From an uncultured Candidatus Saccharibacteria bacterium (GTDB lineage: Bacteria > Patescibacteriota > Minisyncoccia > UBA6257 > 2-01-FULL-56-20), in the NCBI GenBank assembly GCA_964361095.1, contig CAYHZA010000001.1:1456-65455 (forward strand): DNA of 64,000 bases, read 5' to 3'. How positions within the stretch are numbered: the stretch's first letter is position 1; every line of letters starts with the position of its first letter. Shown here piece after piece: positions 433 to 55,029 of this stretch. A model generated the notes under the pieces. That model had not been told where the DNA came from. It saw only the letters and a list, made by a program, of their open reading frames with translations, and made no database searches. The position numbers were made by a program, and so were the translations under genes.

Positions 433-1281
433 ATGGCAAAAACTATAAAAATATTTTTGATTGACGGCGAACCTAACGGCCTAAAAACCGCTGAATTAAG
501 TAATTGGGTTGGTCAAGCAATCGTTATTCCTAGAAATAAACTTAAAGAAATAAAACAACGCCCTGAATGTAACAAGCCAGCAGTTTATTTTCTGATCGGT
601 AAAGAGAGCGAAGAAGCACTCTTGCCTACTGCATATGTAGGAGAGGCAGAAAATTTATGGAATAGACTATCTACTCATGATAGCTCAAAGGATTTTTGGC
701 AAACCGCAGTAGCGTTTGTGAGTAAAGATAATAATTTAACAAAAGCCCATGTTAGGTATCTTGAGAGTAGATGCTTAACTTTAGCAACTAAAGCAAAAAG
801 GTTTAATTTAGAAAATGGCACAGAATCATCTTTACCTTCTTTATCTGAAGCAGATATTGCCGAGATGGAAGAATTTTTGGAAAACCTGAAACTTTTGTTT
901 TCTGCTCTTGGCTACCCAATTTTGCAAGAAGTTATTTCTAAAGAACAAAAAAATATATCAGACCCTCTTTTTACTTGTAGGGGCAAAGATGCTTTAGCAA
1001 CTGGTCGTATGACAAACGACGGCTTTGTTGTTTATAAAGATTCAACCGCAACAACCGATATTTCGAAGGCAGTTATTGATCGTAATCAAAAAATTATAGA
1101 AAAGTTATTAAAAAATAATTATCTCGAAAAATTAAATGACGGCTTATATATTTTTGTTAAGGACTACGTCTTTAATAGTCCCAGTGCCGCATCTGATATT
1201 ACACTAGGCAATTCTACTAGCGGTTGGAAAAAATGGAAAACGGAAAGTGGCAAGACATTAGAAGAGGTTTATAGAAAATAA
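433..1281 (+). CDS. GIY-YIG (T5orf172-like) nuclease with C-terminal DUF4357-like domain
   Basis: N-terminal motifs VYFLIGK...AYVGEAENLWNRLSTH (GIY...YIG...R...H). The C-terminal tail SPSAASDITLGNSTSGWKKWKTESGKTLEEV matches the DUF4357 pattern as I recall it. Confidence 0.6.
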   Translation: MAKTIKIFLIDGEPNGLKTAELSNWVGQAIVIPRNKLKEIKQRPECNKPAVYFLIGKESEEALLPTAYVGEAENLWNRLSTHDSSKDFWQTAVAFVSKDNNLTKAHVRYLESRCLTLATKAKRFNLENGTESSLPSLSEADIAEMEEFLENLKLLFSALGYPILQEVISKEQKNISDPLFTCRGKDALATGRMTNDGFVVYKDSTATTDISKAVIDRNQKIIEKLLKNNYLEKLNDGLYIFVKDYVFNSPSAASDITLGNSTSGWKKWKTESGKTLEEVYRK

Positions 1282-1283
1282 AT

Positions 1284-3095: not shown

Positions 3096-3993
3096 CAAAA
3101 TCAAAAGGTCCCCGTTATTTTATGTCGGGGATAAATACAAACTAATGAAGCAATTGGTAAATTTATTTCCCAAAGAAGTGAATAATTTTTACGAACCTTT
3201 TGTTGGCGGAGGCACTGTATTTTTGAACATTGAAGCGAAGAAGTATTTTTTAAATGACATAAACAAACATCTGATTAACATACATAAGTTTTTGATGAAA
3301 AGCGCAGATAATCCAAGCTCGTTTTTTAAAAGCGTTGGAAAAGTAATATCCAAATATAAATTATCCAAATCTTACAAAGAAGATATAATTCCAGATTCAC
3401 TAAAAAAAGAATGGAAAAAAACTTATTTTGCCCGATTTAACAAAGAGGGATACGAAAAATTGAGAGTGTGTGTGAATAATAACAAAAAAAATGACCCTCT
3501 GATTTTGTATATTTTGCTTATATACGGGTTTAACAGAATGTTGAGATTTAATGGTGGTGGCAAATTTAATCTGCCTGTCGGGAATGTTGATTTTAACAAA
3601 AATGTAGTTAATGCCCTAAATGGCTATTTTGATTTTGTAAATAATAAGAAAATCACAATTACATCGAATGATTTTAAAAAGTTTTTTTTAGAGAAACAAT
3701 ATTTTAAAAATGATTTTGTTTATTTAGATCCGCCCTACTTAATAACCGCAAGCGAATATAATAAGTTTTGGGATTCAAAATCTGAATCTGACTTGTTAAA
3801 CTTAATCGATAATTTAGACAAAAGAGGCGTTAAATTTGCTTTATCAAATGTTACACATTACAACGGAAGCAAAAATGACCTTTTGATAGAGTGGATGGGA
3901 CAATATAAGGTACACAAAATTGAAAGCAACTATATTAGCTATCACAATAATGGGAAAAAGATAATCAAAGAAGTCTTGATCACTAACTATTAA
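3088..3993 (+). CDS. Dam-like (D12 class) N6-adenine DNA methyltransferase
   Basis: FYVGDKYKL N-terminal motif, EPFVGGGTVF (motif I), LDPPY (motif IV). Overlaps the upstream ORF by 8 nt, so operon-like. Confidence 0.75.
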   Translation: MNNKIKRSPLFYVGDKYKLMKQLVNLFPKEVNNFYEPFVGGGTVFLNIEAKKYFLNDINKHLINIHKFLMKSADNPSSFFKSVGKVISKYKLSKSYKEDIIPDSLKKEWKKTYFARFNKEGYEKLRVCVNNNKKNDPLILYILLIYGFNRMLRFNGGGKFNLPVGNVDFNKNVVNALNGYFDFVNNKKITITSNDFKKFFLEKQYFKNDFVYLDPPYLITASEYNKFWDSKSESDLLNLIDNLDKRGVKFALSNVTHYNGSKNDLLIEWMGQYKVHKIESNYISYHNNGKKIIKEVLITNY

Positions 3994-3997
3994 AATT

Positions 3998-5515
3998 ATG
4001 AAAAAACGACAATCCGAATATAAACCATTATTATTTACGACAACAATGAGAAATCCTGAACGACTAAAGGATTTTTTAACCGTGCTTGTTGAATATGATG
4101 GCGAAATTTTAACAAACGAAATTATTGATAAAGTAGCTAAAATCTTGATTCAAAAAGGGTTATATCAACCCATGAAAATAACGCAAGTAGTAAAAGGTAA
4201 ATGGAAAAACGAAATAGAACTAAGCGAGGCTGAAACCGAAAAAGTATTTGATGAGAATCCGCAAAGCCATAAAGAGGCAGGTTTTGAAAAAGGTTGGCCA
4301 TCGAGATTTGATACTTGGTTTAAAATTGCCAAAGAACTTGGTTTTGTTTGGTATTGGCCAAATGAAGAAATAAAATTTTCCGAAAGCGGGAAAATGCTAT
4401 TGGATAAAGAAAAACCTGAAAACGAATTGATGGTTTTTGCTAATGCTTTCGCAAAATATCAGCGACAAAATCCGTTTCGTAGAGTTTTAAATAAAAATGT
4501 ACCATTGATATTGCTGATACAAACAATAAAACTCCTAGACAATGACCCTGCCTATAATGGCACGGGTATTTCAAGGTTAGAAATTCCGTTATTGCTCTGT
4601 TGGCAAAATGATAATGCCGAAAGTTTATATCGTGAAATAAAAAAGTTGCGTAAAAAATATGGCTATTCGCCAAGCAATGAGATAGTTTTAGATCTTTGCT
4701 ATGAATTATTAAACGAAACCAAAAGAGACGATAATTCTATCTTAGGTGATTATCCCGATGATTTTATTCGCAAAATGCGTTTAACTGGTTTATTTTCTTT
4801 GCGTGGTGGCGGTCGTTTCATTGACATCAACACAAAAGAAATTGCGACTGTAAATTATATTTTAGAAAATTATATTTCTTATCCAACCTTTACGACTGAA
4901 AAAGATTATTTTGATTATATTGGCAAAGTGGACACCAATTTGATTGCAACGCTCTCCGTCTATGAAACTCCTGTTAGAACTACTAAAGCGGAGTTGGAAA
5001 AATGGGTAAATCATTATGCGTGGGAATCAATTAAAACCGAGATGCTTAATTTAGCGCAGAAAAAATCTTCCGAAGATGATATTTTGCGGGTGATAGAACA
5101 GCCTTTGCGTTTAGAGTTTTTAACCTCTTTGGCTATTCTCAAAAAATTACCAAATGTTGTAGTAAAGCCAAATTTTGTTTCAGATGATGAGGGTTTACCG
5201 ACAAGCTTTGCTTCTGGTGGAAACCCAGATATTGAATGTCTAGAAGATAAGGACACCGTATTGATAGAAGTGACTTTACTAACAGGCACACAGCAACATA
5301 TTAGAGAGTCATTTTCAGTACACCGACATCTTGAGGAGTATGTAAAGAAAGGCACTAAATCATATTCTGTGTTTATCTCCCCCAAATCTTTCATTGATAC
5401 TGAACGCTATTTTGATTTTATCAAAAAGGATGGTTTGGAAGTGAGAATTTCGAATATCGATAAATTCGTCCTCGGTCTTGAAGAAAAGACAACATTGAAC
5501 GAAGCGACTTTATGA
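3998..5515 (+). CDS. Candidate restriction endonuclease (type IIS-like, family unassigned; possibly AlwI-like)
   Basis: 505-aa ORF starting 5 nt after the second methyltransferase gene. The C-terminal segment GGNPDIECLEDKDTVLIEVTLLTG resembles a PD-(D/E)xK core. Two same-strand N6A methyltransferases upstream are typical of asymmetric-site type IIS systems. Family assignment is by context and memory only. Confidence 0.35.
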   Translation: MKKRQSEYKPLLFTTTMRNPERLKDFLTVLVEYDGEILTNEIIDKVAKILIQKGLYQPMKITQVVKGKWKNEIELSEAETEKVFDENPQSHKEAGFEKGWPSRFDTWFKIAKELGFVWYWPNEEIKFSESGKMLLDKEKPENELMVFANAFAKYQRQNPFRRVLNKNVPLILLIQTIKLLDNDPAYNGTGISRLEIPLLLCWQNDNAESLYREIKKLRKKYGYSPSNEIVLDLCYELLNETKRDDNSILGDYPDDFIRKMRLTGLFSLRGGGRFIDINTKEIATVNYILENYISYPTFTTEKDYFDYIGKVDTNLIATLSVYETPVRTTKAELEKWVNHYAWESIKTEMLNLAQKKSSEDDILRVIEQPLRLEFLTSLAILKKLPNVVVKPNFVSDDEGLPTSFASGGNPDIECLEDKDTVLIEVTLLTGTQQHIRESFSVHRHLEEYVKKGTKSYSVFISPKSFIDTERYFDFIKKDGLEVRISNIDKFVLGLEEKTTLNEATL

Positions 5516-8499: not shown

Positions 8500-8551
8500 T
8501 TACGGCTCGGACCGGATTCAACTGGTGGCAAACTCTTACTCTCGGTACAAA

Positions 8552-8789
8552 GCTCGCCCCGTTAGATAATTTCATATCTAACGGGGCGAGCCACCCCAGT
8601 AGTACAGCGAAGCTGACTACGGGGCAGGCAAGGGCAACCAAGTGGGGAATCAGGGGTTACAGGTTCTCGTACTTGGCCAGCAATCCTTTCACCCCGTTAG
8701 ATGCAAAGTTATCTAACGGGGTGAATCTGATCCAAAACCACGGTAGGATACCCCAGTAGTAGAACGTGAAGCGTTCACTACGGGGCAGG
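8552..8789. repeat. Two tandem ~136-bp units, each a long hairpin (CCCCGTTAGAT...ATCTAACGGGG) followed by a second hairpin (CCCCAGTAGTA...ACTACGGGGCAGG)
   Basis: Unit A is 8552-8628 and unit B is 8688-8789. The outer stems covary (gctcg/cgagc versus ttcac/gtgaa) while the inner stem is conserved. That pattern suggests a selected RNA or DNA structure. Confidence 0.55.
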
Positions 8790-8888
8790 TTTGTACTCCT
8801 CCGCCCAGTCAAAAGTTCGAAAATCGTTGAGCAGGGCGAGCTTTGGAGTCAATACAAATTACCCGGGAATGTGCGGCGCCCTGTTAAG

Positions 8889-8914
8889 GCGAAGGTTTTA
8901 ATTCGGGAGTAATT
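8889..8914. repeat. 21-nt motif GCGAAGGTTTTAATTCGGGAG(+NAATT), copy 1, upstream of lipoprotein gene
   Basis: Identical 21-mer recurs at 10002-10022. Both copies lie ~100 bp upstream of a start codon. Confidence 0.5.
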
Positions 8915-8917
8915 ACA

Positions 8918-8946
8918 TTGACATTTAGTACGAAGCGTGCTATGAT
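8918..8946 (+). promoter_or_regulatory. Sigma70-type promoter TTGACA-17-TATGAT
   Basis: ttgaca (8918-8923), a 17-nt spacer, then tatgat (8941-8946). An RBS aaaggaga lies upstream of the ATG at 8989. Confidence 0.6.
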
Positions 8947-8988: not shown

Positions 8989-9411
8989 ATGAAAACGTCG
9001 AAAGGTATCGTATTGTTTTGTGCGGTATTGATCATCCTTATTTCGTCGGCATGCAGAGAAATAAAGATGGTTCTCTCGCCTGAAATGACAGAGGAAGCGA
9101 CTGTCGCTGATCTCGTCTACACGCCGTCAAATCACGGGAGCGACATCAGCCCGACCATGAACATGAACGGAGACCTCGGCGTTGCATTTACGAGTATCGA
9201 CATTTTGGAACGGTATGCAGTAGTCTTCCAGTGCCAGCATGAAAAGTTCATAGTCCAGAGCGACCAGACGAAAGCGAAGGAGCTTTGGACGCGCCTGAAG
9301 AAAGACCAGAAGGTGACCGTCAGATACAGAGAAAGATACGAGGAAACATTCGACGACGAGAAACTCGTCGAACGACGTCTGAAGAAATATGATTTCATCG
9401 ACGCCAACTGA
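8989..9411 (+). CDS. Small secreted or lipoprotein of unknown function
   Basis: N-terminal signal peptide MKTSKGIVLFCAVLIILISSAC (lipobox-like ISSAC). Good RBS. GC-rich relative to neighbours. Confidence 0.5.
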   Translation: MKTSKGIVLFCAVLIILISSACREIKMVLSPEMTEEATVADLVYTPSNHGSDISPTMNMNGDLGVAFTSIDILERYAVVFQCQHEKFIVQSDQTKAKELWTRLKKDQKVTVRYRERYEETFDDEKLVERRLKKYDFIDAN

Positions 9412-10001: not shown

Positions 10002-10027
10002 GCGAAGGTTTTAATTCGGGAGCAATT
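10002..10027. repeat. 21-nt motif GCGAAGGTTTTAATTCGGGAG(+NAATT), copy 2, upstream of ABC exporter gene
   Basis: 21/21 identical to 8889-8909. Confidence 0.5.
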
Positions 10028-11988: not shown

Positions 11989-12017
11989 TTGACAAATAGT
12001 ACACGCGGAGCTATTTT
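11989..12017 (+). promoter_or_regulatory. Putative promoter TTGACA-17-TATTTT
   Basis: Upstream of the zinc-ribbon ORF. RBS aaagggagg. Confidence 0.4.
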
Positions 12018-12050
12018 GTTTTTAGAACAAACATAAAGGGAGGTAACGCC

Positions 12051-12272
12051 ATGCAGTTTTGTTCGAAGTGCGGCGCGAGTAACTGGGAATATCTCAAAAG
12101 CGGAGGTTGCGGAGGAAACGGTCAGATCAAGGGCTGTAAGAAATGCGGTGCGGTTTTTGTGCAGAAGAGCGGTGGCATCGTCGCGACTCCCGGAGGCGAG
12201 ACATGGAGTCCTCTCGGCTACACCTTGGACGAGTATCGCAAGAGAGTTCCCGAGAAGCCCGCTCGGAAATAA
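12051..12272 (+). CDS. Small zinc-ribbon protein (CxxC...CxxC)
   Basis: CSKCG...CKKCG. Strong RBS. GC-rich. Followed by a conserved-loop hairpin. Confidence 0.45.
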   Translation: MQFCSKCGASNWEYLKSGGCGGNGQIKGCKKCGAVFVQKSGGIVATPGGETWSPLGYTLDEYRKRVPEKPARK

Positions 12273-12292
12273 CGCTCATCGTTTAATATTGA

Positions 12293-12322
12293 GACCGTAT
12301 GGTTCGCCCAGCGGTCTTTTTT
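12293..12322 (+). terminator. Hairpin gaccg-TATGGTTCGCCCAG-cggtc plus T6. The loop is conserved with 46594-46615.
   Basis: Stem sequences differ between the two copies but remain complementary. The 14-nt loop (t/c)ATGGTTCGCCCAG is identical apart from one position. Confidence 0.55.
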
Positions 12323-12439
12323 ATTAACCGCGCCAGCAAATCCAGAAGATGGACACTTTGACCTATCTATCGTATAGTTTTTCAAGTATAATCAGAAAAA
12401 TCATATACCTATCCACAAACTCTGCGGAGGATTATCGAC

Positions 12440-29621: not shown

Positions 29622-30482
29622 ATGGAGGGTTTGCACGATAAAAAATTAAAATTCTTAGAGGAGATGTCGAATGTCTTGCGTCAAGACGTGATAAAAACAC
29701 TCGTCGAGGCGGGGAGCGGACACTCGGCGGGTCCCTTGGGTATGGCGGACATCTTTACGACGCTTTATTTCCATATTTTAAATCACGATCCGAAGAAACC
29801 GGAGTGGCCGGATCGGGATCGCGTGGTTCTCTCGAATGGGCATATTTGCCCGATTTTATACGTTACGCTTGCCCACGCTGGCTATTTCAAGCTCGAAGAG
29901 TTAAAGACGCTCCGTAAGCTCAATTCTCGTCTCCAGGGCCATCCGCACCGTAAATCATTGCCGGGAGTTGAAACCACGTCCGGCCCTTTGGGTTCGGGGA
30001 TTTCGCAGGCGATCGGTATCGCGCTCGCGGCAAAGCTTGACGGCAAGCGGTATCGCACCTATTGTCTGACGTCCGACGGCGAACACGAGGAGGGAAATAC
30101 ATGGGAGGCGATAATGTTTGCGGGAAAAAACAGATTAAGCAATCTTACGGTTGTCGTGGATCGCAATAACATTCAAATCGACGGTTTTACCGAAACGATA
30201 ATGCCCCTTGAGCCGTTTGCCGAAAAGTACAAATCTTTCAACTGGTATGTGATTGAAGTGAACGGCCACAGCCATCAGGATTTTGTGGATGCTGTTGCCG
30301 AAGCGCACGCGATTCATGAACGCCCGACGGTAATTATCGCGCATACGATTCCCGGAAAAGGGGTGAGTTTTATGGAAGATGACTTTCGCTGGCATGGTAA
30401 ACCACCAAACAAAGAAGAAGCTAATAAGGCATTAAAAGAGCTAAGAACTTTAGGTGATCGCATCGCCAGCGAACATCAATAA
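29622..30482 (+). CDS. tkt: Transketolase, N-terminal (TPP-binding) subunit; its last ~25 codons are supplied by the inserted element
   Basis: GHSAGPLGMADI, LSNGH, GPLGSGISQAIGIALA, TSDGEHEEG. The 3' end (30393-30482) has AT-rich, recoded codon usage. Confidence 0.85.
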   Translation: MEGLHDKKLKFLEEMSNVLRQDVIKTLVEAGSGHSAGPLGMADIFTTLYFHILNHDPKKPEWPDRDRVVLSNGHICPILYVTLAHAGYFKLEELKTLRKLNSRLQGHPHRKSLPGVETTSGPLGSGISQAIGIALAAKLDGKRYRTYCLTSDGEHEEGNTWEAIMFAGKNRLSNLTVVVDRNNIQIDGFTETIMPLEPFAEKYKSFNWYVIEVNGHSHQDFVDAVAEAHAIHERPTVIIAHTIPGKGVSFMEDDFRWHGKPPNKEEANKALKELRTLGDRIASEHQ

Positions 30483-30782
30483 GTGGCACGCCCCCACACC
30501 TAACGAGTTTTATGTTCTACATCTATATGTTAAAGAGCAAAAAGGATAATATGTTATATGTAGGTTCTACTGGTGATCTACGAGAAAGGTTTGCTTTGCA
30601 TAATGCAGGGAAAATAGTTTCTACCAAAGGTCGCCGCCCGTTTGAACTGGTTTATTATGAAGCTTATCGCGCCGAGGATGATGCCCGTACACGCGAGCAT
30701 AACCTAAAGCTTCGTTCTAATGCCCTAAACCAGTTGAAACGCAGATTGAAGAAAAGTCTCGAAACTCGTTAGGTGTGGGGGC
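30393..30782 (+). mobile_element. GIY-YIG mini-element: recoded transketolase 3' end, 18-bp terminal inverted repeats (gcccccacacctaacgag / ctcgttaggtgtgggggc) and the GIY-YIG gene
   Basis: Inverted repeats lie at 30490-30507 and 30765-30782. Upstream of the left repeat is a synonymous, AT-rich recoding of the host gene end. Host sequence resumes at 30783. Confidence 0.7.
30512..30772 (+). CDS. GIY-YIG nuclease (YhbQ/UPF0213-like, 86 aa)
   Basis: MLYVGSTGDLRERFALHN (GIY...YIG...R...H). The stop codon lies inside the right inverted repeat. Confidence 0.8.
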   Translation: MFYIYMLKSKKDNMLYVGSTGDLRERFALHNAGKIVSTKGRRPFELVYYEAYRAEDDARTREHNLKLRSNALNQLKRRLKKSLETR

Positions 30783-30871
30783 ACGGGAAACCGCCGAAGC
30801 CGGACGAAGCACGGATTGCACTTAAGGAACTGCGGACATTAGGGGAGAGGATAAAGAGCGAACACCAATAA
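30783..30871 (+). pseudogene. Displaced original 3' end of the transketolase N-subunit gene (HGKPPKPDEARIALKELRTLGERIKSEHQ*)
   Basis: GC-rich host-like codons. Translation parallels ...HGKPPNKEEANKALKELRTLGDRIASEHQ* at the end of the intact ORF. Confidence 0.65.
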
Positions 30872-42847: not shown

Positions 42848-43870
42848 ATGGAAAAGGTCAATTTGGAAATTTCATGGGGTGCGCTCTGGCGAGTGCTTTT
42901 CTTTGTTCTCTTTGTTGCGGTTATGTTTTTGGCGCGTCAGATCTTTTTCGGTCTTTTCCTCGCGATCGTGATTTCTTCGGGACTTGAGGGTGTCGTGAAT
43001 TTTTTGGAAAAACGCGGTTTACCGCGGGCGTTAAGCGTTATTGCTATTTTCGTCGCGGGTATTGTGATGGTGATAGGAGTGGTTTATCTCGCGGTGCCTC
43101 TTCTTATCGCGGATATTAATATCGCGGTTACCAGTTTTAATAAATCGATCCAATCGTTCGGATTCGGACCCGTGTTGAATCCCGAGATCTTGAAGTCATT
43201 CAACGGTTTTATCACGAGAATTTCAACGAGTTTATTTTCTTCCGACAGTACGTCGCCGCTTGAAGCGCTTTCCGGATTTTTGGGGGGATTAAGTCTGGCG
43301 GTTTCGGTATTCGTGAGCTCGTTTTACTTGAGTCTTACCAAGGACGGAGTTGAGCGTTTCATTCGCGCGGTATTTCCCGCCGATTCGGAAGAAGCGGCGC
43401 TTCGTGTATATGATCGTTCAAAACGACAGATTGCGATTTGGTTCCGTACGCAAGTGATCTTGAGTTTTGTGATAGGAATTTTGGTTTGGGGAGCGCTTTC
43501 TGTTTTAGGAGTAAAGCATGCCTTGCTTCTTGCGATTCTTGCCGGTCTCTTTGAAATTGTGCCGTATGTAGGACCGATCTTGGCGGGCGCCACGGCGGTG
43601 CTTGCGGCTCTCGCGGTTTCCCCTGGCCTCGCGCTTACGACACTTATCGTCTTCCTCGGTATACAACAGCTCGAAAACCATATTCTTGTACCCGTGTTGA
43701 TGAAGCGTTCCGTAGGGCTTCATCCCGTTGTGGTGATCATCGCATTACTTGTGGGAGCGGAGATCATGGGCTTTTTGGGAATCCTCATCGCGGTTCCTGT
43801 CGCCGCGATATTTCAGGAGGTTGTCGAAGATTGGTCCAGTAAAAAAAGATCGCGTTCCGCCGCTTCTTAG
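42848..43870 (+). CDS. AI-2E family transporter (PerM/YhhT-like)
   Basis: 8 TM helices with the typical AI-2E hydrophobicity pattern. Low-specificity call. Confidence 0.5.
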   Translation: MEKVNLEISWGALWRVLFFVLFVAVMFLARQIFFGLFLAIVISSGLEGVVNFLEKRGLPRALSVIAIFVAGIVMVIGVVYLAVPLLIADINIAVTSFNKSIQSFGFGPVLNPEILKSFNGFITRISTSLFSSDSTSPLEALSGFLGGLSLAVSVFVSSFYLSLTKDGVERFIRAVFPADSEEAALRVYDRSKRQIAIWFRTQVILSFVIGILVWGALSVLGVKHALLLAILAGLFEIVPYVGPILAGATAVLAALAVSPGLALTTLIVFLGIQQLENHILVPVLMKRSVGLHPVVVIIALLVGAEIMGFLGILIAVPVAAIFQEVVEDWSSKKRSRSAAS

Positions 43871-43873
43871 CCG

Positions 43874-45328
43874 ATGAGAAAGTTCTATATTACGACGGCG
43901 ATCGATTACGTGAATGACAAGCCGCATCTTGGCCATGCCTTGGAAAAAGTGCAGGCTGATGTTATCGCGCGTTATCATCGCCTCAAAGGCGATGATGTTT
44001 TCTTTTTAACGGGCACGGACGAGCATGGACAGAAAATCGCCCGTGCGGCAAAAGGGGTAGAGAAGGAGCCGCAAAAATTCGTAGATGAAGTTTCCGAGAA
44101 ATTTCGGTCTTTGAAAGACGCGCTTAATTTATCGTATAACGATTTTATCCGCACGAGCGATAAAGAACGGCACTGGCCGGGAGCAGTAAATATGTGGCGG
44201 GAACTTATGCTCGCGGGCGCGATCTACAAGAAAAACTACAAGGGATTTTATTGCGTGGGACACGAGGCGTTTATTACGGAAAAAGAGTTAATTGACGGTA
44301 AATGCCCGGATCATGGGAAAGAGCCCGAAATTATCGAAGAGGAGAATTATTTTTTTAAACTCTCGGAATATGGTTCGCGGATCAAAGAGAAAATAGAGAG
44401 TGATGAATTTCAGATTATTCCGGAGAGTCGTAAGAATGAGATTCTGTCTTTGATTGATCGTGGGCTTGAGGATATAAGCTTTTCACGTTCCGCAAAAAAT
44501 TTAGAGTGGGGCATACCGGTGCCGGATGATTCGGATCAGGTGATGTATGTGTGGTGCGACGCGCTCACAAATTATCTTTCGGCAATCGGCTATGGGCAGA
44601 ATGATGATTATAAAAAATGGTGGCCGGCGGATGTGCAGGTAATCGGCAAGGACATTCTGCGTTTTCACGCCGCAATCTGGCCCGCGATGCTTTTGGCCGC
44701 AGGCTTGGAATTGCCCCAAAAGCTTTTTGTGCATGGGTTTATTACGGTAGATGGCAAGAAAATGTCTAAAACGATTGGGAATGTTCTCGACCCGGTGGAA
44801 TTTATAGAAAAACTGGTTCAAAGGGGCGTTCCGCGAGAGAGCGCAATAGATGCCCTTCGTTATTATTTACTGCGCGAAATTCCCTCGACCGAGGACGGCG
44901 ATTTTTCCGAAGAGAAATTTATCGAGCGCTATAATGCCGATTTGGCGAACGGATTGGGGAATTTGGTAAGTCGTGTTATGAAAATGGCAGGATCTTTTGG
45001 GGCAAAATTAAAAAAGGATGAAGTGGGAAAAATCGAGGGAGACATAACTAATTTACAAATCAATGAAATGTTATTGTGCTTTAATTTTGCTCATGCGCTC
45101 GAGATGATAATGGGTTATTTTAGACAATGCGACATTTACATACAAGAGAAAGAACCATACAAATTGGAGGGTGAACAGGGGCGTTTCCATGTCGAGTATC
45201 TGATGGCGGCCCTGTATAGGGACATAGAGTTTTTGGAACCATTTTTACCGGCAACAAGTAAAAAAATTTTCGACATACTCGAACGTGGTCTAGAGGTAAA
45301 AAACCCTCTTTTCCCCCGCATTTCCTAA
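43874..45328 (+). CDS. metG: Methionine--tRNA ligase (short form)
   Basis: HLGH motif, KMSKT motif, zinc knuckle CxxC. Confidence 0.9.
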   Translation: MRKFYITTAIDYVNDKPHLGHALEKVQADVIARYHRLKGDDVFFLTGTDEHGQKIARAAKGVEKEPQKFVDEVSEKFRSLKDALNLSYNDFIRTSDKERHWPGAVNMWRELMLAGAIYKKNYKGFYCVGHEAFITEKELIDGKCPDHGKEPEIIEEENYFFKLSEYGSRIKEKIESDEFQIIPESRKNEILSLIDRGLEDISFSRSAKNLEWGIPVPDDSDQVMYVWCDALTNYLSAIGYGQNDDYKKWWPADVQVIGKDILRFHAAIWPAMLLAAGLELPQKLFVHGFITVDGKKMSKTIGNVLDPVEFIEKLVQRGVPRESAIDALRYYLLREIPSTEDGDFSEEKFIERYNADLANGLGNLVSRVMKMAGSFGAKLKKDEVGKIEGDITNLQINEMLLCFNFAHALEMIMGYFRQCDIYIQEKEPYKLEGEQGRFHVEYLMAALYRDIEFLEPFLPATSKKIFDILERGLEVKNPLFPRIS

Positions 45329-46156
45329 ATGTATTTCGACGCTCACACTCATTCGCATTTTGCCGCTTTCGAAAACGACTGGAAGGAAGTTATTGATCGT
45401 GCGCTTGCCAAGAATGTATGGATGATTAACGTCGGCACGCAGGCAGATACCTCAAAGAGCGCTATCGAAGTTGCGTATGGATATAAAGAAGGCGTATACG
45501 CGACTGTAGGTCTCCATCCTATTCACACGGAAAAATCGTATCATGACGCGAATGAACTTGGTGATTCTGAAGAGGCGAAAGGATTTACAAGCCGCGGAGA
45601 GGAGTTTGATTATGCCGCGTATTTAAAACTCGCCGAGGATCCCAAGGTGGTCGCGATAGGCGAGTGTGGATTGGATTATTACCGTTTAAGCGAAGAAACT
45701 CGTAAGCGCCAAGAGGCGACGTTCTTGGGACACGTGGAACTTGCGCATGAGGTGAAAAAGCCGCTTATGATTCATTGCAGGAACGCTTTTGCGGACCTTA
45801 TTCGCATCCTTGGGGCGGCAAAAGATTCTTTAAATGACCAGCCGGGTGTCATCCATTTTTTCACCGGAACTCCGGAGGACGCAAAGCAACTTCTGGATCT
45901 TGGATTTTCTTTTACGTTCGGCGGGGTGATCACATTCGCGCGGGATTACGATGAAGTCATAAAAACGATACCTATAGATAGAATACTCTCCGAAACCGAC
46001 GCGCCCTATGTAACTCCCGTGCCCTATCGCGGCAAGCGCAACGAGCCGGCGTACGTGGTTGAGGTGGTCAAAAAATTGGCGGAACTTAAAAATATCGAGG
46101 TGGACAGAATGGAAGCATATATATTTGACAACGCCAAACATATCTTTAAGATATAG
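45329..46156 (+). CDS. tatD: TatD-family metal-dependent hydrolase/DNase
   Basis: N-terminal HTHSH motif and TatD TIM-barrel pattern. Confidence 0.8.
   Translation: MYFDAHTHSHFAAFENDWKEVIDRALAKNVWMINVGTQADTSKSAIEVAYGYKEGVYATVGLHPIHTEKSYHDANELGDSEEAKGFTSRGEEFDYAAYLKLAEDPKVVAIGECGLDYYRLSEETRKRQEATFLGHVELAHEVKKPLMIHCRNAFADLIRILGAAKDSLNDQPGVIHFFTGTPEDAKQLLDLGFSFTFGGVITFARDYDEVIKTIPIDRILSETDAPYVTPVPYRGKRNEPAYVVEVVKKLAELKNIEVDRMEAYIFDNAKHIFKI
46124..46156. repeat. 33-bp direct repeat copy 1 (tatD 3' end tttgacaacgccaaacatatctttaagatatag)
   Basis: 31/33 identical to 46631-46663. Confidence 0.7.
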
Positions 46157-46189
46157 ACAGCAATTCTCGACATCAAGGAGGAAGAAGAG

Positions 46190-46567
46190 ATGTATAGCGA
46201 CGATGTTGTGCGCCAGCTTTTCTACCAGATTGTGGTTCGCCTGCGGGATTCCTTGGGAAAGCCAAAGCCTTTTCACTACAAGCTCGCGATTCTGCTCGGA
46301 GTAAGGGAGCAAGAGGTGCGTTCGTGGGAAGGCGGAGGTCTGCCCGATGAGCAGACGGTGTGGAAAGCGCTCCGCTTGCAGATGCTTCTTGATGCCTTGG
46401 GTAATCAGGTGAACGCAGAAGACCGGATAGGTTTTCTACTTCGGTTCCACCAGGGGCTTTCTGGCCTCCGTCCCATAGACTGTCTTGATTCGGCGTCGGC
46501 AGCGGCCGAGGTGAGGCAACTTGTGTTTGGGGATAGAAATGGTGGGAACGAGATTCCTCAGGGATAG
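46190..46567 (+). CDS. Hypothetical protein (cassette ORF between the tatD-end direct repeats)
   Basis: 125 aa, GC-rich, RBS aaggagg. Confidence 0.35.
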   Translation: MYSDDVVRQLFYQIVVRLRDSLGKPKPFHYKLAILLGVREQEVRSWEGGGLPDEQTVWKALRLQMLLDALGNQVNAEDRIGFLLRFHQGLSGLRPIDCLDSASAAAEVRQLVFGDRNGGNEIPQG

Positions 46568-46593
46568 GATACAGCTCCCATAGAAATTCAAAA

Positions 46594-46624
46594 GCCGCAT
46601 GGTTCGCCCAGCGGCATTTTATTT
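46594..46624 (+). terminator. Hairpin gccg-CATGGTTCGCCCAG-cggc plus T-rich tail. Conserved-loop partner of 12293-12316.
   Basis: See 12293-12322. Confidence 0.5.
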
Positions 46625-46630
46625 ATGGTG

Positions 46631-46663
46631 TTTGCAAACGCCAAACATATCTTTAAGATATAG
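46631..46663. repeat. 33-bp direct repeat copy 2 (tttgcaaacgccaaacatatctttaagatatag)
   Basis: Duplicate of the tatD 3' end, 474 bp downstream of copy 1. Confidence 0.7.
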
Positions 46664-46705
46664 GCAGAAGCTTGATAAACTACCTTTGATGGTTTGGAGG
46701 ATATT

Positions 46706-47266
46706 GTGGAAAAAACCAGAAGAAAGATCTGTGTGTTTTGCGCTTCGGCTCCGAGCACTCCGATCGAACACGTGAAACTTGCCGAACAATTCGGGAAAGA
46801 CCTCGCCGTGGGCGGGTTCGATCTGGTATGGGGCGGCTGTGAAGCGGCCTCGATGGGGGCTCTTGCAAGAGGCGTTCAATCCGGAGGCGGCAAGGTATTC
46901 GGCGTCATTTTGGAACGCATGTTGGAAGAGGGGCTTGTCTATCGTTCTTCCGACATCCTCTACGCGGAAGAAACCCTCTCAGCGCGCAAACAGCTCATGG
47001 GAGAAATGGCGGATGCGTTCGTGGTTTTGCCGGGAGGATTTGGAACCCTCGACGAATTCGCTTCCCGCCTTGCGGAATCCATTATTGACGCAAAGCACGG
47101 AATCCAGCACAAGAAAATCGCCGTTTTGAACTGGGAGAGATTTTACAGCGACCTTGTCTGTTTTCTCGAAGGTCTTTATGCCTACCGGTTCGCCGACATC
47201 TCGTATCGGGACCTGTATAGGATTCTTCCAGATACGCAATCCGTTCTTGAGTACCTGAAGGAATAA
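46706..47266 (+). CDS. LOG-family protein (cytokinin riboside 5'-monophosphate phosphoribohydrolase-like)
   Basis: PGGFGTLDEF motif. GTG start preceded by ggagg. Confidence 0.7.
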   Translation: MEKTRRKICVFCASAPSTPIEHVKLAEQFGKDLAVGGFDLVWGGCEAASMGALARGVQSGGGKVFGVILERMLEEGLVYRSSDILYAEETLSARKQLMGEMADAFVVLPGGFGTLDEFASRLAESIIDAKHGIQHKKIAVLNWERFYSDLVCFLEGLYAYRFADISYRDLYRILPDTQSVLEYLKE

Positions 47267-47296
47267 AATTTTTTACCAAGATTAGGGAGGTATTCC

Positions 47297-47467
47297 GTGA
47301 AGAAGAAACAAGAACCCGAACTTCGCCTACGTCAGCTTACGCAGGAGGAGATGCGAGAAGCGCTTGTGCGAGAGGCGGCAGAGCTTGAAGCGGCATTTCG
47401 AGAGTTGGATCGAATCCGCTGTGGCGTGTCACAGAGATTTCTTCGGGAGACGAAATTCAATGTCTAA
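47297..47467 (+). CDS. Small hypothetical protein (56 aa, GTG start)
   Basis: Strong RBS gggagg 7 nt upstream. Overlaps the next small ORF. Confidence 0.3.
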   Translation: MKKKQEPELRLRQLTQEEMREALVREAAELEAAFRELDRIRCGVSQRFLRETKFNV

Positions 47468-47630
47468 TGAGCAATCGGAAAAGAAAATAGTTTTTGAAGT
47501 TCGTGAGCTTTCCCACGAGGAAATCGTCGAGTGTGCTCGCGAGGGTCGGCGGCTTCGGCGGGAGATGCAAAAAGAGATCGATGGGACTCGGCACATTTCG
47601 TCCGAAGCGTGGAACTTCCACGTTGACTAA
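47460..47630 (+). CDS. Small hypothetical protein (56 aa) translationally coupled to 47297-47467
   Basis: ATG overlaps the upstream stop (ATGTCTAATGAG). Followed by a terminator. Confidence 0.3.
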   Translation: MSNEQSEKKIVFEVRELSHEEIVECAREGRRLRREMQKEIDGTRHISSEAWNFHVD

Positions 47631-47663
47631 TCCCTGCATACTCATTTTTCGGTGTTTCATCAT

Positions 47664-47696
47664 GACCGCGGAGCATTATTCTGCGGTCTTTTTTTT
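47664..47696 (+). terminator. Rho-independent terminator gaccgcggagc-attatt-ctgcggtc plus T8
   Basis: GC stem plus a T-run. Confidence 0.6.
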
Positions 47697-47726
47697 GCTC
47701 ATTTTTTGCGGTAAAATCTTAATACC

Positions 47727-50333
47727 GTGAAGTACAACCATCGAAAAATTGAGAAGGGATGGCAAAAGCAGTGGCTTAAGGAAAAAATCTATGAGCCCTT
47801 CTTCGCTCCCGCCGCCGCTAAAGCTACGGTGGGCAAGCCTGATTTAACGCACGCAAAGAGGCCTTTTTATAACCTGATGATGTTCCCATATCCTTCCGCG
47901 GAAGGGCTTCATGTCGGGAATATGTACGCGTTTGTGGGCGCGGATATCTACGGGCGTTTCAAGCGGATGCACGGGTATGACGTATTTGAACCGATAGGTT
48001 TGGATGGTTTCGGAATCCATGCCGAAAACTATGCCCTGAAGATAAAGAAGCATCCCGCCGAACAGGCGAAGATTTCCGAAAAGAATTTCTATCGCCAGCT
48101 TGTGGAAATCGGCAACGGTTTTTCGTGGGATGAGCACTTGGAAACCTATGATTCGGAGTACTACAAATGGACGCAGTGGATTTTCGTCCAAATGTTCAAG
48201 CATGGGCTCGCGTATCGTAAAAAGCAGGCGGTTAATTGGTGCCCGGACTGTAAAACCGTTTTGGCCGACGAACAGGTCCTATCCGGAGAATGCGAGCGAT
48301 GCGGTACAAAAGTTATGAAACGAGAGTTGGAACAGTGGTTTTTTCGTATAACGAAGTACGCGGAAAAACTTTTGAAAGGCCTAGATGGATTGGATTGGTC
48401 GGAAAAAATAAAGATCGCCCAGAAAAATTGGATCGGTAAATCCGAAGGCGCGCTTATCGACTTTACGATTAAGGGTACGGGTATGAACGTAGAGGTATTT
48501 ACCACGCGGCCGGATACCATTTTCGGCGCGACGTTTTTGGTTTTGTCGCCGGAAAATCCCTTGGTGACGGCGCTGGAATTCGAAATGAAAAACAGGAAAG
48601 AGGTAACGCGGTACGTGGAGCAGTTCATTAAGCATAAAGAAACTTCGACACCCCACAGGGGTCGGAGTCCCAACCGAAGCGTCGGGGAAAAAAAGGGCAT
48701 AGAACTCAAGGGTGTAAAAGCCATAAATCCGGCGACCAAAAAGGAAATTCCGATTTGGGTCGCGGATTACGTGGTTATGGAATACGGCACGGGGGCGATT
48801 ATGGCGGTACCGGCTCATGACGAACGGGACTTTGAGTTTGCGAAAGAAAAAAAGTTACCCATTAAATTCGTTGTTGTCCCGCCAGCCGATCAGCAAAGCC
48901 GTTTAATGTTGTCTCACTTAGATCTTGCTTCGGGCAATTCAAAATCTCGCACGGATTTTTCCGGTCCCTACACAGGCATAGGCTTTCTCATAGATTCCGA
49001 TCGATACAGTGGTTTTGATTCCGAAAAAGCAAAGTGGGCAATCACGAAATTCGTCAAAGGCAAAAAAGAAATCCACTACCGCCTCCGTGACTGGCTTATC
49101 TCACGCCAGCGTTATTGGGGGCCACCGATTCCGATGATTTTCTGTCCGCATTGCGCGCACCGAAAAATGGGTGAACGAAACGATATGCCCGGGTGGTACA
49201 GCGTTCCCGAAAAAGATCTGCCGGTTCGTTTACCGAAGATCAAAGATTTTCGTCCGAAAGGCGAGGGGGTTTCGCCGTTGGCAAAAGTTCCCTCATTTTA
49301 TGAAGTAAAATGTCCCAAGTGCAACCATGAGGCGGTGCGGGAAACCGACGTTTCGGACACCTTCTTGGATTCCGCATGGTATTACCTTGGGTATTTGATG
49401 CAAAATCAAAAATCAAAAATCAAAAATCAAAATTACAAAGCGAAAAATAAAAGTCCTTGGGATCAAGCGGTTGTACGAAAATGGCTTCCGGTCGATATGT
49501 ATATCGGAGGAGCGGAACACGCCGTACTTCACCTTTTGTACGTTCGATTTATGGCAAAGGTATTTCATGATTGGAAACTCGTTGATTTTGATGAGCCAGC
49601 AAAAAAATTCCGCGCGCACGGGCTTTTGATCCGCGACGGAAAAAAAATCTCAAAATCAAAAGGCAATATTATAAATCCCGATCAGTTTATCAGCGAGTTC
49701 GGCGCGGACGCTCTGCGGATGCACCTGATGTTTTTGGGCCCGTTCGAAGAAGGCGGCGATTTTCACGATCAGGGTATTATGGGCCCCGTACGGTTTTTGG
49801 AGCGCGTGTGGGAGAGATTTAACTCTGTAGCGAAATTTGATTTGCCGCGTTCCAAAGATTCGAATGGGGACGTGAATACCGCCATGTCAGATGAGTATTT
49901 TCATCGGGCGATAAAAAAAATTACCGGAGACATAAAAAATCTGCGTTACAATACCGCCGTGAGCGCTCTTATGATGCTCTTAAACGATATGGTAACGCTC
50001 AAAGTTTATGACAGCAGATTTTTGGTGCTTCTTGCTCCGTTTGCGCCGCACATGGCGGAAGAATTGTGGCGGAACGTTTTGGGCCATAAAACTTCCATTC
50101 ATCGCGAGCCGTGGCCCGTATATGATAAAAACAAAATAGCGGAAAAGACATTCACGTTGGTAATTCAGGTGAACGGCAAAGTGCGGGATACCGTGGATGT
50201 CACGGTTGGAATAAGCGAGTCCGATGCGAGAGAACTTGCTTTAAGTCGAGAGAAAATTAAGAACGCGGTGGGTGAACATTCCATAAAACGCATAATTTAT
50301 ATTCCCGGTCGTCTTATGAATATCGTACTCTAA
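47727..50333 (+). CDS. leuS: Leucine--tRNA ligase
   Basis: GTG start. HVGN(HIGH-like) and KISKSKGN (KMSKS) motifs, editing domain. 868 aa. Confidence 0.9.
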   Translation: MKYNHRKIEKGWQKQWLKEKIYEPFFAPAAAKATVGKPDLTHAKRPFYNLMMFPYPSAEGLHVGNMYAFVGADIYGRFKRMHGYDVFEPIGLDGFGIHAENYALKIKKHPAEQAKISEKNFYRQLVEIGNGFSWDEHLETYDSEYYKWTQWIFVQMFKHGLAYRKKQAVNWCPDCKTVLADEQVLSGECERCGTKVMKRELEQWFFRITKYAEKLLKGLDGLDWSEKIKIAQKNWIGKSEGALIDFTIKGTGMNVEVFTTRPDTIFGATFLVLSPENPLVTALEFEMKNRKEVTRYVEQFIKHKETSTPHRGRSPNRSVGEKKGIELKGVKAINPATKKEIPIWVADYVVMEYGTGAIMAVPAHDERDFEFAKEKKLPIKFVVVPPADQQSRLMLSHLDLASGNSKSRTDFSGPYTGIGFLIDSDRYSGFDSEKAKWAITKFVKGKKEIHYRLRDWLISRQRYWGPPIPMIFCPHCAHRKMGERNDMPGWYSVPEKDLPVRLPKIKDFRPKGEGVSPLAKVPSFYEVKCPKCNHEAVRETDVSDTFLDSAWYYLGYLMQNQKSKIKNQNYKAKNKSPWDQAVVRKWLPVDMYIGGAEHAVLHLLYVRFMAKVFHDWKLVDFDEPAKKFRAHGLLIRDGKKISKSKGNIINPDQFISEFGADALRMHLMFLGPFEEGGDFHDQGIMGPVRFLERVWERFNSVAKFDLPRSKDSNGDVNTAMSDEYFHRAIKKITGDIKNLRYNTAVSALMMLLNDMVTLKVYDSRFLVLLAPFAPHMAEELWRNVLGHKTSIHREPWPVYDKNKIAEKTFTLVIQVNGKVRDTVDVTVGISESDARELALSREKIKNAVGEHSIKRIIYIPGRLMNIVL
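49401..49434 (+). repeat. Heptanucleotide microsatellite (CAAAAAT)x~4.7 inside leuS
   Basis: Encodes QNQKSKIKNQNYK in an insertion region of leuS. Confidence 0.8.
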
Positions 50334-51247
50334 TGGCAAAAGTATTTGGCGCCGCGATTTTAATCCTTGCCTTGATTGTTCTTATTGTTATAGTACGTTC
50401 CGATTCCAATCCCTTAAGTCGGATTTTTACCCGTTCCTCGAGTACTTTTGGAGGTTTTGGCACAAGCACGATTTCGCAGAGACCCTCTCCTCCTGCTTAC
50501 ACTCCGCCGCCACGAACTTCGCCATCTGGCGGATCACCTCCTCTGGCGCAAACGACCTCGACGATAAATCCCCGTGACATTCCGCAGGGATTTACGCTTG
50601 CCCAGCTTTCGCCTTATTTCAAAAAAGTGCGCATTGCTTCGCTCTCTGCCGGTTCGGAGACTAGTTATAGCGTGGTAACACTTCGCGCGGGAATCAGCGG
50701 GTCAAGTACGGTAAATATTACCGGTTGGCAGTTCAAATCGAACCGCGGCGGACAAATTATGCCGCGCGCGATCAATAGTTACGATCCGAGCGGACTTACG
50801 AGCGAGAGCGATATTGTACTTAAAAACGGGGATTTCGTGAGGATCTATTCGACGGTAAGTCCTATCGGGAAAAATCTTCGCCTTAATTCCTGCGTTGGGT
50901 ATCTCGAAAATCATTTGAATTTTAATCCGCGGCTTTCGGTAAGTTGCCCGCAGATTGATTATTCGGGGATCTCTTCATTTACCGGCAGATGTCAGGATTA
51001 TATTCGCTCGCTCGGATCGTGCCGCGAGCCGGTGGCAAATCCGCCGATACCGCTTACCGATTACGCGTGCAGAGATTATGTGAGCGTCTTAAATTATCGC
51101 GGGTGTTACGACCGCCATCGCGGCGATTCTGATTTCTTGAAAAACGAATGGCGCGTGTGGACAGGGAGTAAATTCCTTGATTTTCGTCACGACCGAGTAT
51201 ACCTCTTTGATACGCGAGGCTTGCTGGTAGACGCTTATACGTACTAA
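50333..51247 (+). CDS. Hypothetical secreted/membrane-anchored Pro/Ser-rich protein with Cys-rich C-terminus
   Basis: N-terminal TM helix. ATG overlaps the leuS stop. Confidence 0.4.
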   Translation: MAKVFGAAILILALIVLIVIVRSDSNPLSRIFTRSSSTFGGFGTSTISQRPSPPAYTPPPRTSPSGGSPPLAQTTSTINPRDIPQGFTLAQLSPYFKKVRIASLSAGSETSYSVVTLRAGISGSSTVNITGWQFKSNRGGQIMPRAINSYDPSGLTSESDIVLKNGDFVRIYSTVSPIGKNLRLNSCVGYLENHLNFNPRLSVSCPQIDYSGISSFTGRCQDYIRSLGSCREPVANPPIPLTDYACRDYVSVLNYRGCYDRHRGDSDFLKNEWRVWTGSKFLDFRHDRVYLFDTRGLLVDAYTY

Positions 51248-54283: not shown

Positions 54284-54390
54284 GATTATTCTCCTCTCGA
54301 GAGAAAAGTTTTTATACGTTGTGCTGACAATAGGGGAGCTATTATTGATACTAAAGAAAAGAGAGTTTTTTGTAAATTACCTGCTTTTCC

Positions 54391-54480
54391 CACCCAAAGC
54401 GGAAGGTGGATGCCCCGCCCATGGCGGGATTGCTGTTTTCTAAATTCGCTTTGCTTATTAAGAAAACAGGGAAGATTCTT
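54391..54480. repeat. Degenerate duplicate of the tRNA-Ser flanking region with the tRNA body deleted
   Basis: cccaaagcggaaggtgga ... tgctgttttctaa...ttaagaaaacaggga parallels 54613-54640 and 54725-54775. Confidence 0.5.
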
Positions 54481-54540
54481 CCCGTTCGGTACAAATCTTT
54501 GATTTGTTAACCGAACGCAATCCCGCTTCGCGGGAGAACC

Positions 54541-54600
54541 TCTACCGATTTTCCCGAACATTGCGGTAGGGGTGAGATTCGAACTCACGATACCATTTCT
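54541..54600 (-). other. tRNA 3'-half-like fragment (stem-loop plus T-arm GTGAG-TTCGAAT-CTCAC plus acceptor-3'-like strand) lacking a 5' half
   Basis: Minus-strand read ...CTATACCAGAAATGGTATCGTGAGTTCGAATCTCACCCCTACCGC. No D-arm or 5' acceptor strand is found. Confidence 0.4.
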
Positions 54601-54626
54601 GGTATAGCAGTTTTCCCCGCCCAAAG

Positions 54627-54713
54627 CGGAAGGTGGAGGATTCGAACCTCCGAAGCTGTTTCCAGCTTACCGCATTTCAAGTGCGGCGCATTCGTCCACT
54701 CTGCCAACCTTCC
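54627..54713 (-). tRNA. tRNA-Ser (anticodon TGA), type II with long variable arm
   Basis: GGAAGGT acceptor stem, 3-bp D-stem, anticodon loop CTTGAAA, variable hairpin, T-arm GGAGG-TTCGAAT-CCTCC, discriminator G. 12-bp leader/trailer complementarity. Confidence 0.85.
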
Positions 54714-54958
54714 GCTTTGGGCGGGACTGCTTTTTTCTAAGCTCATCTTATTCGCTAAGAAAACAGGGAGCAAGACTGCCGCCTTCAACCCTTGCCCGCC
54801 AAAACTTTGGCGTCGGCGGGACTCGGCCACCCCACCCGCTTGCTTTATTGTTAGTGAAAAATAAGAAAATTACAAATTCCGAGGGTGGCATGGAATGAAG
54901 CTCCGATGCTTCGATCGGAGCACAAAAAAAACCCTGAGTATTCGGGGTTTTCTTTTTG

Positions 54959-55029
54959 TGGACCTACGGGGAATCGAACCCCGATATCACGCATGCCATG
55001 CGTGCGCTTTACCACTAAGCTATAGGCCC
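54959..55029 (-). tRNA. tRNA-Ala (anticodon GGC)
   Basis: GGGCCTA acceptor with the G3:U70 identity pair. Anticodon loop ATGGCAT. T-arm CGGGG-TTCGATT-CCCCG. Upstream promoter TTGCAA-17-TACTAT. Downstream terminator. Confidence 0.85.

Follow-up and report, generated by a model that had tools for sequence, protein, structure and literature searches.

We describe a short direct repeat at the 3' end of tatD, and the single gene enclosed between its two copies, in a 64,000-nucleotide stretch of contig CAYHZA010000001.1 from an uncultured Candidatus Saccharibacteria bacterium (hereafter, the window). On the plus strand, tatD (45329-46156), a YchF/TatD-family hydrolase gene of 275 codons that provides the upstream anchor of synteny (Pfam TatD_DNase, 6e-77; NCBIfam TIGR00010, 243 bits against a cutoff of 206), ends in 33 nt (46124-46156, TTTGACAACGCCAAACATATCTTTAAGATATAG) that are found again at 46631-46663 (TTTGCAAACGCC...TATAG) with two mismatches (31/33); a longer alignment of the two copies extends over 37 nt (46124-46160 versus 46631-46667, 34/37). 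By this alignment, the upstream copy, E1 (46124-46160), is the coding tatD terminus (FDNAKHIFKI, then the stop codon), and the downstream copy, psiE (46631-46667), which was also recognized from its match to the relative L011, is a non-coding relic of that terminus lying immediately 5' of a LOG/TIGR00730-family gene (LOG hereafter). The spacer of 474 bp (46157-46630) consists of a leader, read from the sequence (46157-46189), with the ribosome-binding site (RBS) AAGGAGG at 46175-46181, one open reading frame (ORF) of 125 amino acids (aa), orf125 (46190-46567), and an intrinsic-terminator-like hairpin with a U-rich tract (46594-46626). A preliminary description made from the sequence alone had reported this repeat, with an ORF and a hairpin between its copies, and all of it was confirmed at those positions. 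Downstream, also on the plus strand, lie LOG itself (46706-47266, with an alternative TTG start at 46694; Pfam Lysine_decarbox, 6e-24, LDcluster4; TIGR00730, 117 bits against a cutoff of 96), two overlapping 56-aa ORFs with homologues in relatives (sORFa, 47297-47467, and sORFb, 47460-47630), and a strong intrinsic terminator (47664-47696; 10-bp stem plus T8, -15.8 kcal/mol, z = -4.4) that closes the region before leuS (47727-50333).

The repeat is neither a chance match nor an assembly artefact, both of which we considered and rejected. It had 0 matches in 100 dinucleotide-preserving shuffles, and artefact is excluded because 10 separately assembled contigs, from several Hainich groundwater H51 samples and by several assemblers, show the same arrangement. 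The window itself belongs to a Parcubacteria contig of this groundwater (well H51). Six of these ten contigs were compared with the window: five had no difference across 46001-47300, and the sixth (L006) was identical over its 805 nt, while a further low-coverage scaffold (L180) carried two single-base differences and a run of N. The two copies mismatch only at their outer edges and share an identical core of 27 nt. At its left edge E1 has GAC, an Asp codon, in agreement with the true tatD terminus of L090, the closest relative; at its right edge psiE has a G behind the stop codon, in agreement with L011. At the left edge of psiE, homology to tatD ends abruptly (12/45 identity in the left flank). 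The tatD reading frame ends normally inside E1, and the direct repeats thus restore the 3' end of the target gene.

Comparison with related loci indicates where the two halves of the arrangement come from. The order metS-tatD-[variable slot, 0 to 3.5 kb]-leuS is kept in most of ~160 related Parcubacteria loci, and sORFa and sORFb belong to the conserved genes of this slot 5' of leuS. In L011 (Liptonbacteria; TatD 75% identical), LOG comes directly after the true tatD end; psiE matches that end at 30/33 positions, and both the GGCAG after the stop codon and the leader are common to the two. Because psiE together with LOG matches this contiguous junction, we read psiE, from sequence comparison, as the displaced old tatD terminus, kept before LOG, and LOG as the resident gene, found behind the tatD end in relatives. 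The other half is found in L096 (TatD ~74% identical), where tatD precedes a 125-aa Xre-type helix-turn-helix (HTH) ORF; the same hairpin, its stem altered by a compensatory change, and an sORFa-like gene come next, and neither a relic nor LOG is present in the ~640 nt of contig 3' of tatD. As tatD-orf-terminator (L096) and tatD-LOG (L011) both exist, the window is a composite of these two arrangements. L011 could be rejected as a simple empty site, as it carries its own tatD-end relic after LOG, with a winged-HTH (wHTH) Cas2-like gene directly 3' of that relic.

Two further relatives contain the same parts in other orders. L090 (TatD 84% identical) has tatD, a 59-aa sORFb homologue, a terminator, a relic, LOG, the closest homologue of orf125 (orf126), the same terminator, a NUDIX gene and leuS; it thus holds sORFb alone of the two small ORFs, placed between tatD and the relic. 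In L171, the order is tatD-end sequence, LOG, a terminator related to that of the window, a relic, a homologue of orf125 (orf167), sORFa, sORFb and a terminator. The unit formed by the tatD end and LOG is conserved in L011, L090 and L171 (78% over 570 nt between L090 and L171). An orf125-type gene adjoins LOG, on either side, in all three genomes that have such a gene.

Relics of the tatD terminus recur well beyond this genome. We searched with a position-specific scoring matrix built from 112 TatD C-termini, taking the reverse strands of all loci as background, where it gave 2 hits scoring ≥15 in 1.27 Mb. Non-coding relics of 33-45 nt were found 3' of tatD in L090, L011, L012/L105 and L037, and longer ones, of 60-90 nt, in L106, L028, L121 and L154; that of L171 was identified by direct reading. 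Altogether ~8 related loci hold a relic behind the gene that follows tatD, representing fewer independent lineages, since L012 and L105, L106/L028 and L121/L154 are closely related. Relic length varies between lineages (33, about 33, about 36, about 45 and 60-90 nt), and the cargo differs in both content and orientation, from a small ORF, LOG or a 511-aa ORF (L012) to three reverse-strand genes for a methyltransferase, an HD-domain protein and an ArsR-type regulator beside a convergent maf gene (L037). In L106, L028, L121 and L154, the relic lies behind a 195-198-aa wHTH plus PaaX_M/Cas2-like gene in either orientation; the presence there of 60-90 nt tatD-end fragments led us to reject the view of L106, L121 and L154 as tandem tatD paralogues.

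The wHTH-Cas2-like gene was present in 6 of ~170 tatD loci (L106, 2491-3078; L028, 4891-5478; L121, 1594-2190, minus strand; L154, 5994-6590, minus strand; L011, 5601-6188; L026, 5041-5619, minus strand), always directly after tatD, and with a relic adjacent in five of the six. As a separate observation, two Logan contigs (k=31), L171 (position 1) and L179 (position 2073), break exactly at the start and end of the tatD terminus, as would be expected if those genomes hold terminus repeats of ≥31 nt.

We give a probability of about one half to the reading that the repeat is the footprint of duplicative recombination within the conserved last codons of tatD, brought about by no enzyme of the inserted DNA. 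Under this reading, DNA consisting of a tatD end, an orf and a terminator, whose source could be a close relative or another part of the same slot, would have recombined with a chromosome bearing a tatD end followed by LOG, with the crossover placed inside the last 11 codons of tatD. Two routes are conceivable: a circularised fragment could have entered by a Campbell-type single crossover, or the recombination could have been anchored at one end. Either would restore an intact tatD and leave the resident terminus behind as a short direct repeat. The upstream copy, E1, now completes tatD, and the 474-bp insert would be a self-contained transcription unit of one gene. The enzyme would be that of host homologous recombination or a site-specific recombinase acting in trans, none being encoded by the element. 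We favour this reading because our scans revealed no recombinase (see below) and because the copies differ only at their outer edges, around the 27-nt core, which is the pattern expected from a crossover within that core.

Two processes of this kind, single-crossover integration of the Campbell type and the homology-facilitated illegitimate recombination of transformed DNA, are described for Acinetobacter and Streptococcus pneumoniae; they are not known from Parcubacteria. The tatD locus resembles them in that a conserved gene serves as anchor, DNA is added beside it, the homology is duplicated and no mobile-element enzyme is required; it differs in its very short identity (27-33 nt) and in boundaries more tightly clustered than expected of random joints.

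Several observations weigh against duplicative recombination in this form. A homology of 33 nt, 27 of them identical, is near the lower limit for RecA-type recombination, and a sliding-window comparison of tatD, which is too noisy for the purpose, gave no mosaic signal. No donor genome was identified, and among the six contigs and L180 that we compared there was no same-population contig without the insert. Furthermore, L090 and the window have TTGCAAACGC in common in their relics, and at the junction of terminator and relic the window is similar to L171, so that the duplication may be older than this genome, with the near-identity of its copies due to later gene conversion or cargo exchange. 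Lastly, at least 4 relic boundaries fall at -33 to -36 from the end of the stop codon, which could indicate a site-specific enzyme.

Such an enzyme is the basis of one alternative, in which the 33-nt tatD terminus is an attB site at which small cassettes, each of an ORF, a terminator and an attP-like copy of the tatD end, are inserted and exchanged by a tyrosine or serine recombinase encoded at another place in the genome or on a helper element, so that the two copies would be attL and attR. Apart from the clustered boundaries, this account is favoured by direct repeats that reconstitute the tatD 3' end, by the sharp left boundary, by the different cargo carried at the same position in the window and L090, by the restriction of differences between the copies to their outer edges, as in hybrid att sites, and by the two Logan contigs that end at the boundaries of the terminus, hinting at longer identical repeats there. 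The locus is also reminiscent of integrative elements that target the 3' ends of housekeeping genes and bring a surrogate end, such as ICESt1/ICESt3 and CIME at fda in Streptococcus thermophilus, among them remnants without an integrase between att repeats, and of tRNA-gene islands: a direct repeat of the terminal codons flanks the insert, the gene remains intact with its displaced end distal, and the relatives show tandem accretion of repeat-separated units.

These attractions notwithstanding, no recombinase came to light. A Pfam scan of ~64 window ORFs, chosen as plausible genes with overlapping and shadow ORFs left out, yielded no recombinase or transposase; the insert, whose sole gene is orf125, encodes no recombinase, transposase or nuclease; and no tyrosine-recombinase motif was found by regular-expression heuristics in ~175 tatD loci. 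Inspection by eye disclosed no dif/Xer-like or transposon inverted-repeat architecture. Viral contigs were likewise rejected as carriers of an attP-like copy, since none with this tatD-end sequence was found, and our literature search found nothing relevant on mobile elements in Patescibacteria. No full-length element was seen, relic length ranges from 33 to ~90 nt, and the cargo consists of ordinary slot genes that are placed elsewhere in relatives; by the same features, together with the absence of an integrase in view and a size of only 0.4-1.7 kb, the tatD inserts depart from the ICESt1/ICESt3/CIME type. We therefore regard exchange at a tatD attB site as unlikely. The preliminary description had proposed site-specific integration with duplication of the target and had advised a search for a cognate integrase elsewhere. 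An insertion that duplicates the tatD 3' end is upheld by L011, L096 and the recurrent relics; the dedicated integrase is not, given the searches above and the variable length of the duplication.

A second alternative dispenses with incoming DNA. A local tandem duplication, from 33 nt inside tatD to past a terminator, followed by loss of one copy of each gene, would have swapped the order of LOG and orf125 and left a fragment of the tatD end at the junction. The gene set is indeed permuted among relatives (orf125, LOG, sORFa, sORFb in the window; LOG, orf167, sORFa, sORFb in L171; sORFb, LOG, orf126 in L090), and the near-identity of the window copies is consistent with a recent duplication. 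This account fits L090 well because its terminators after sORFb and orf126 are identical over ~25 nt, and the second of these keeps the L171-type downstream flank. Against it, three events are needed per lineage, and the window order cannot be derived from an L171-like order, or the reverse, while retaining the terminator/relic junction that the two share. It also leaves unexplained L012 and L037, with their foreign-looking or reverse-oriented cargo. Nor were remnants of deleted genes detected: neither the comparison made in the L090 leader nor that of the LOG 3' end with the orf125 3' end was significant. Duplication followed by loss thus appears improbable to us as the origin of the repeat.

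The hairpin that closes the insert bears on both the retention of the relic and the remaining alternatives. It comprises 22 nt (GCCGCATGGTTCGCCCAGCGGC, 46594-46615), starts 27 nt past the orf125 stop codon, and is predicted to fold (-13 kcal/mol, z = -2.5) into an 8-bp stem with a single bulged A and a UUCGC loop (GCCGC-A-UGG-UUCGC-CCA-GCGGC), followed by the U-rich tract ATTTTATTTAT. As it measures 22 nt and runs into a U-tract, it is predicted to be an intrinsic terminator and not an attC site; a simple terminator scan missed it because of the bulge. A second such hairpin (ACCGTATGGTTCGCCCAGCGGT, 12294-12315), 22 nt past a 73-aa zinc-ribbon-like ORF (12051-12272), differs in its stem by one compensatory change (G-C to A-U) and one wobble change, and with its flanks (GAGACCGU-A-UGG-UUCGC-CCA-GCGGUCUU plus U6; 12288-12326, plus strand; -13.7 kcal/mol, z = -4.4) appears to be the terminator of that ORF. 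The recurrence of the hairpin after the zinc-ribbon ORF, noted in the preliminary description, thus stands as a near-copy, although the 14 nt that had been taken for its loop are not all unpaired.

The conserved hairpin sequence (GCCGCAUGGUUCGCCCAGCGGC) is by no means confined to this locus. A covariance model built from four copies detects close copies at 12288-12326, in L096 (1792-1811) and in L040 (about 1505-1530, minus strand). It gave one further match, a variant in L171, in the first 0.82 Mb of related loci, and one more, in L177, in the remaining 0.49 Mb, both of them weaker; the L177 hairpin (1521-1542) is 22/22 identical to the copy in the window, lies 125 nt past tatD and is followed by a second hairpin. 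A 20-nt core, CC[GA][CT][AG]TGGTTCGCCCAG[CT]GG, is present verbatim in this Candidate Phyla Radiation (CPR) clade and in 53 IMG/VR contigs of uncultured viruses (L181-L233). In nearly all of these the stem is lengthened by additional complementary bases on its outside and a T-run is present, and the core follows ~35 distinct unrelated upstream ORFs, including proteins of ~894 and 414 aa and various small ORFs; two composition-matched control patterns had 0 hits in the viral-contig scan. The core pattern is rare in cultured phages and in plasmids. In Rfam searches, no known RNA family reached its gathering threshold in the window, and four relatives gave none at E≤1, and the hairpin sequence string was not found in the literature. 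The earlier suggestion that the hairpin is a 3' module shared by cassettes had come with the proviso that it might instead be a common terminator found after dozens of unrelated genes, and since this is where its core occurs, in relatives and in the viral contigs alike, we rejected a cassette-specific role.

That a terminator now separates tatD from LOG raises the question of how the latter is transcribed. E1 contains a sigma-70-like promoter match (TTGACA, 16 nt, TAAGAT; 46125-46152, plus strand; 10/12, a match to consensus only), which is the best such hit in the 6.6 kb of 43800-50400; the match in psiE is weaker (TTGCAA, 16 nt, TAAGAT; 46632-46659). In the window, L090, L171 and L011, the relic stands directly after a terminator hairpin and before an RBS and a gene, a position suggesting that the unit behind it has the tatD terminus for its promoter. 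With a terminator inserted, LOG would need a second copy for its transcription, and the relic was probably retained for a promoter-like sequence driving that gene. This promoter reading meets with objections of its own. The psiE match, at 8/12, is under the scan threshold; promoter-like hits are just as numerous in the region as expected from shuffles; a match at the 3' end occurs in only 10 of 137 distinct tatD genes; and no same-strand gene follows the relic in L012 and L037.

Elsewhere in the window, near-consensus sigma-70-type promoters precede the zinc-ribbon-like ORF (TTGACA, 17 nt, TATTTT; 11989-12031) and a 140-aa ORF (TTGACA, 17 nt, TATGAT; 8918-8946), and the sequence suggests that the organism uses canonical -35/-10 promoters.

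A bolder and distinctly doubtful interpretation would join these strands by taking metS-tatD-[slot]-leuS as a previously undescribed, integrase-less cassette platform, in which the last ~11 codons of tatD act as both recombination site and outward promoter. Units of an ORF plus a terminator would each regenerate the site on capture and would be gained, shuffled and lost, so that, by analogy, an integron-like function might arise from the end of a housekeeping gene and be run by host or trans-acting recombination. The units do resemble integron cassettes in being small, single-ORF and arrayed behind a fixed site that possibly supplies a promoter; they differ in having no attC, IntI or core motifs, in carrying their own terminators and in a repeat that is the end of a gene. 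An attC site is an imperfect palindrome of 57-141 bp, with RYYYAAC...GTTRRRY core sites at the cassette boundaries. That the insert is itself an integron-type cassette, as the preliminary description had offered as an alternative, or what decay has left of a larger island with an integrase, the hairpin being its attC-like site, might be entertained because its small ORF precedes an imperfect hairpin that has one extrahelical base and because similar units are arrayed in relatives, but it is highly improbable. Integron identity was rejected because the defining features are lacking: the hairpin has 22 nt and a U-tract and its core terminates dozens of unrelated phage genes, the boundaries (TATAG/ACAGC and ATGGTG/TTTGC) contain no GTTRRRY or RYYYAAC, and there is no attC-like site, nor any IntI or other recombinase among the ~64 window ORFs scanned.

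The cargo itself belongs to a recognizable family. Although a word-indexed search for homologues of orf125 returned only orf125 itself, an exhaustive search found 16 relatives, and in an alignment of 14 of them Xre_MbcA_ParS_C was detected in 11 and HTH_3 in 8. The family profile matches MbcA (6fkg_C) at 2e-10 over residues 30-123, and an AlphaFold2 model (pLDDT 86) has as its top Foldseek matches NatR (8qnl), VPA0769 (8gug) and MbcA (6fkg). Taken as a single sequence, orf125 falls under the Pfam cutoff (15.9 versus 24.5 bits). By profile and predicted fold, orf125 is a homologue of MbcA/ParS/NatR-type (DUF2384) antitoxins that has a divergent Xre-HTH and lacks an adjacent toxin gene: its neighbours are tatD and LOG, and no RES toxin gene adjoins it or its counterparts in L090 and L171. 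With the MbcA/ParS/NatR/Xre-RES antitoxins (PF09722 plus HTH) it shares profile and predicted-fold matches that span the whole protein, and it differs from them in the missing adjacent toxin gene, a divergent N-terminal HTH and the sub-threshold Pfam score. A role in defence was considered and rejected, PADLOC having given no matches for orf125, LOG or the small ORFs.

Among the slot genes in general (window, L011, L037, L090 and L171), enzymes that handle nucleotides are enriched (LOG/TIGR00730, NUDIX, MazG-like, HD_3/YfbR-like), and the slot also has a nucleoside 2-deoxyribosyltransferase-like gene, from a weak Pfam match. The maf-like ORF that converges on the slot in L037 encodes 194 aa and was assigned by reading the sequence.

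A second gene in the window also has its terminal codons duplicated. The last ~30 codons of transketolase-N (29622-30482) recur, diverged, at about 30779-30871, and between the two end copies lies an 86-aa GIY-YIG ORF (30512-30772; Pfam 1.9e-16) bracketed by an 18-nt perfect inverted repeat (30490-30507 and 30765-30782). Judging from these features, this insert looks like a free-standing homing-endonuclease insertion. The preliminary description had seen the same theme in both loci, and in outline this holds, as each has a small ORF, selfish-looking in the case of transketolase-N, between copies of a conserved gene's terminal codons; the likeness does not extend to the GIY-YIG nuclease and the inverted repeats, neither of which the tatD insert has, and the tatD duplicate is 33 nt and nearly identical, versus ~90 nt and diverged at transketolase-N.

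Other repeats and gene clusters were noted in the window. A 26-nt direct repeat (25/26; 8889-8914 and 10002-10027) flanks a 1.1-kb segment with the above-mentioned 140-aa ORF (8989-9411), which had no Pfam match, and two copies of a structured-looking repeat of ~100 nt (ccccgttagat...atctaacgggg, then accccagtagta...ctacggggcagg) occupy 8540-8800. An apparent restriction-modification island (433-5515) comprises genes for a DUF4357 protein, a RadC-JAB/Dam methyltransferase fusion, a second Dam-class methyltransferase and an AlwI-family endonuclease. At 54378-54770, two families of direct repeats (50 nt, 76%; 33 nt, 85%) adjoin minus-strand tRNA genes (54627-54713 and 54959-55029).

Taken alone, the tatD repeat is a modest piece of comparative genomics and not a new system: insertions that duplicate the end of a gene are commonplace, and what is unusual here is the setting. 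CPR genomes are tiny and hold few recognizable mobile elements, for which reason gene gain and reordering in them are poorly understood. Against this background, the tatD locus offers a concrete and recurrent footprint of gene turnover beside a conserved gene in reduced CPR genomes. Because a relic of the terminal codons marks each insertion, such events become detectable in metagenome assemblies even where no integrase is found. If it is true that the tatD terminus acts as a promoter, then a coding sequence would here have been reused as a portable regulatory module.

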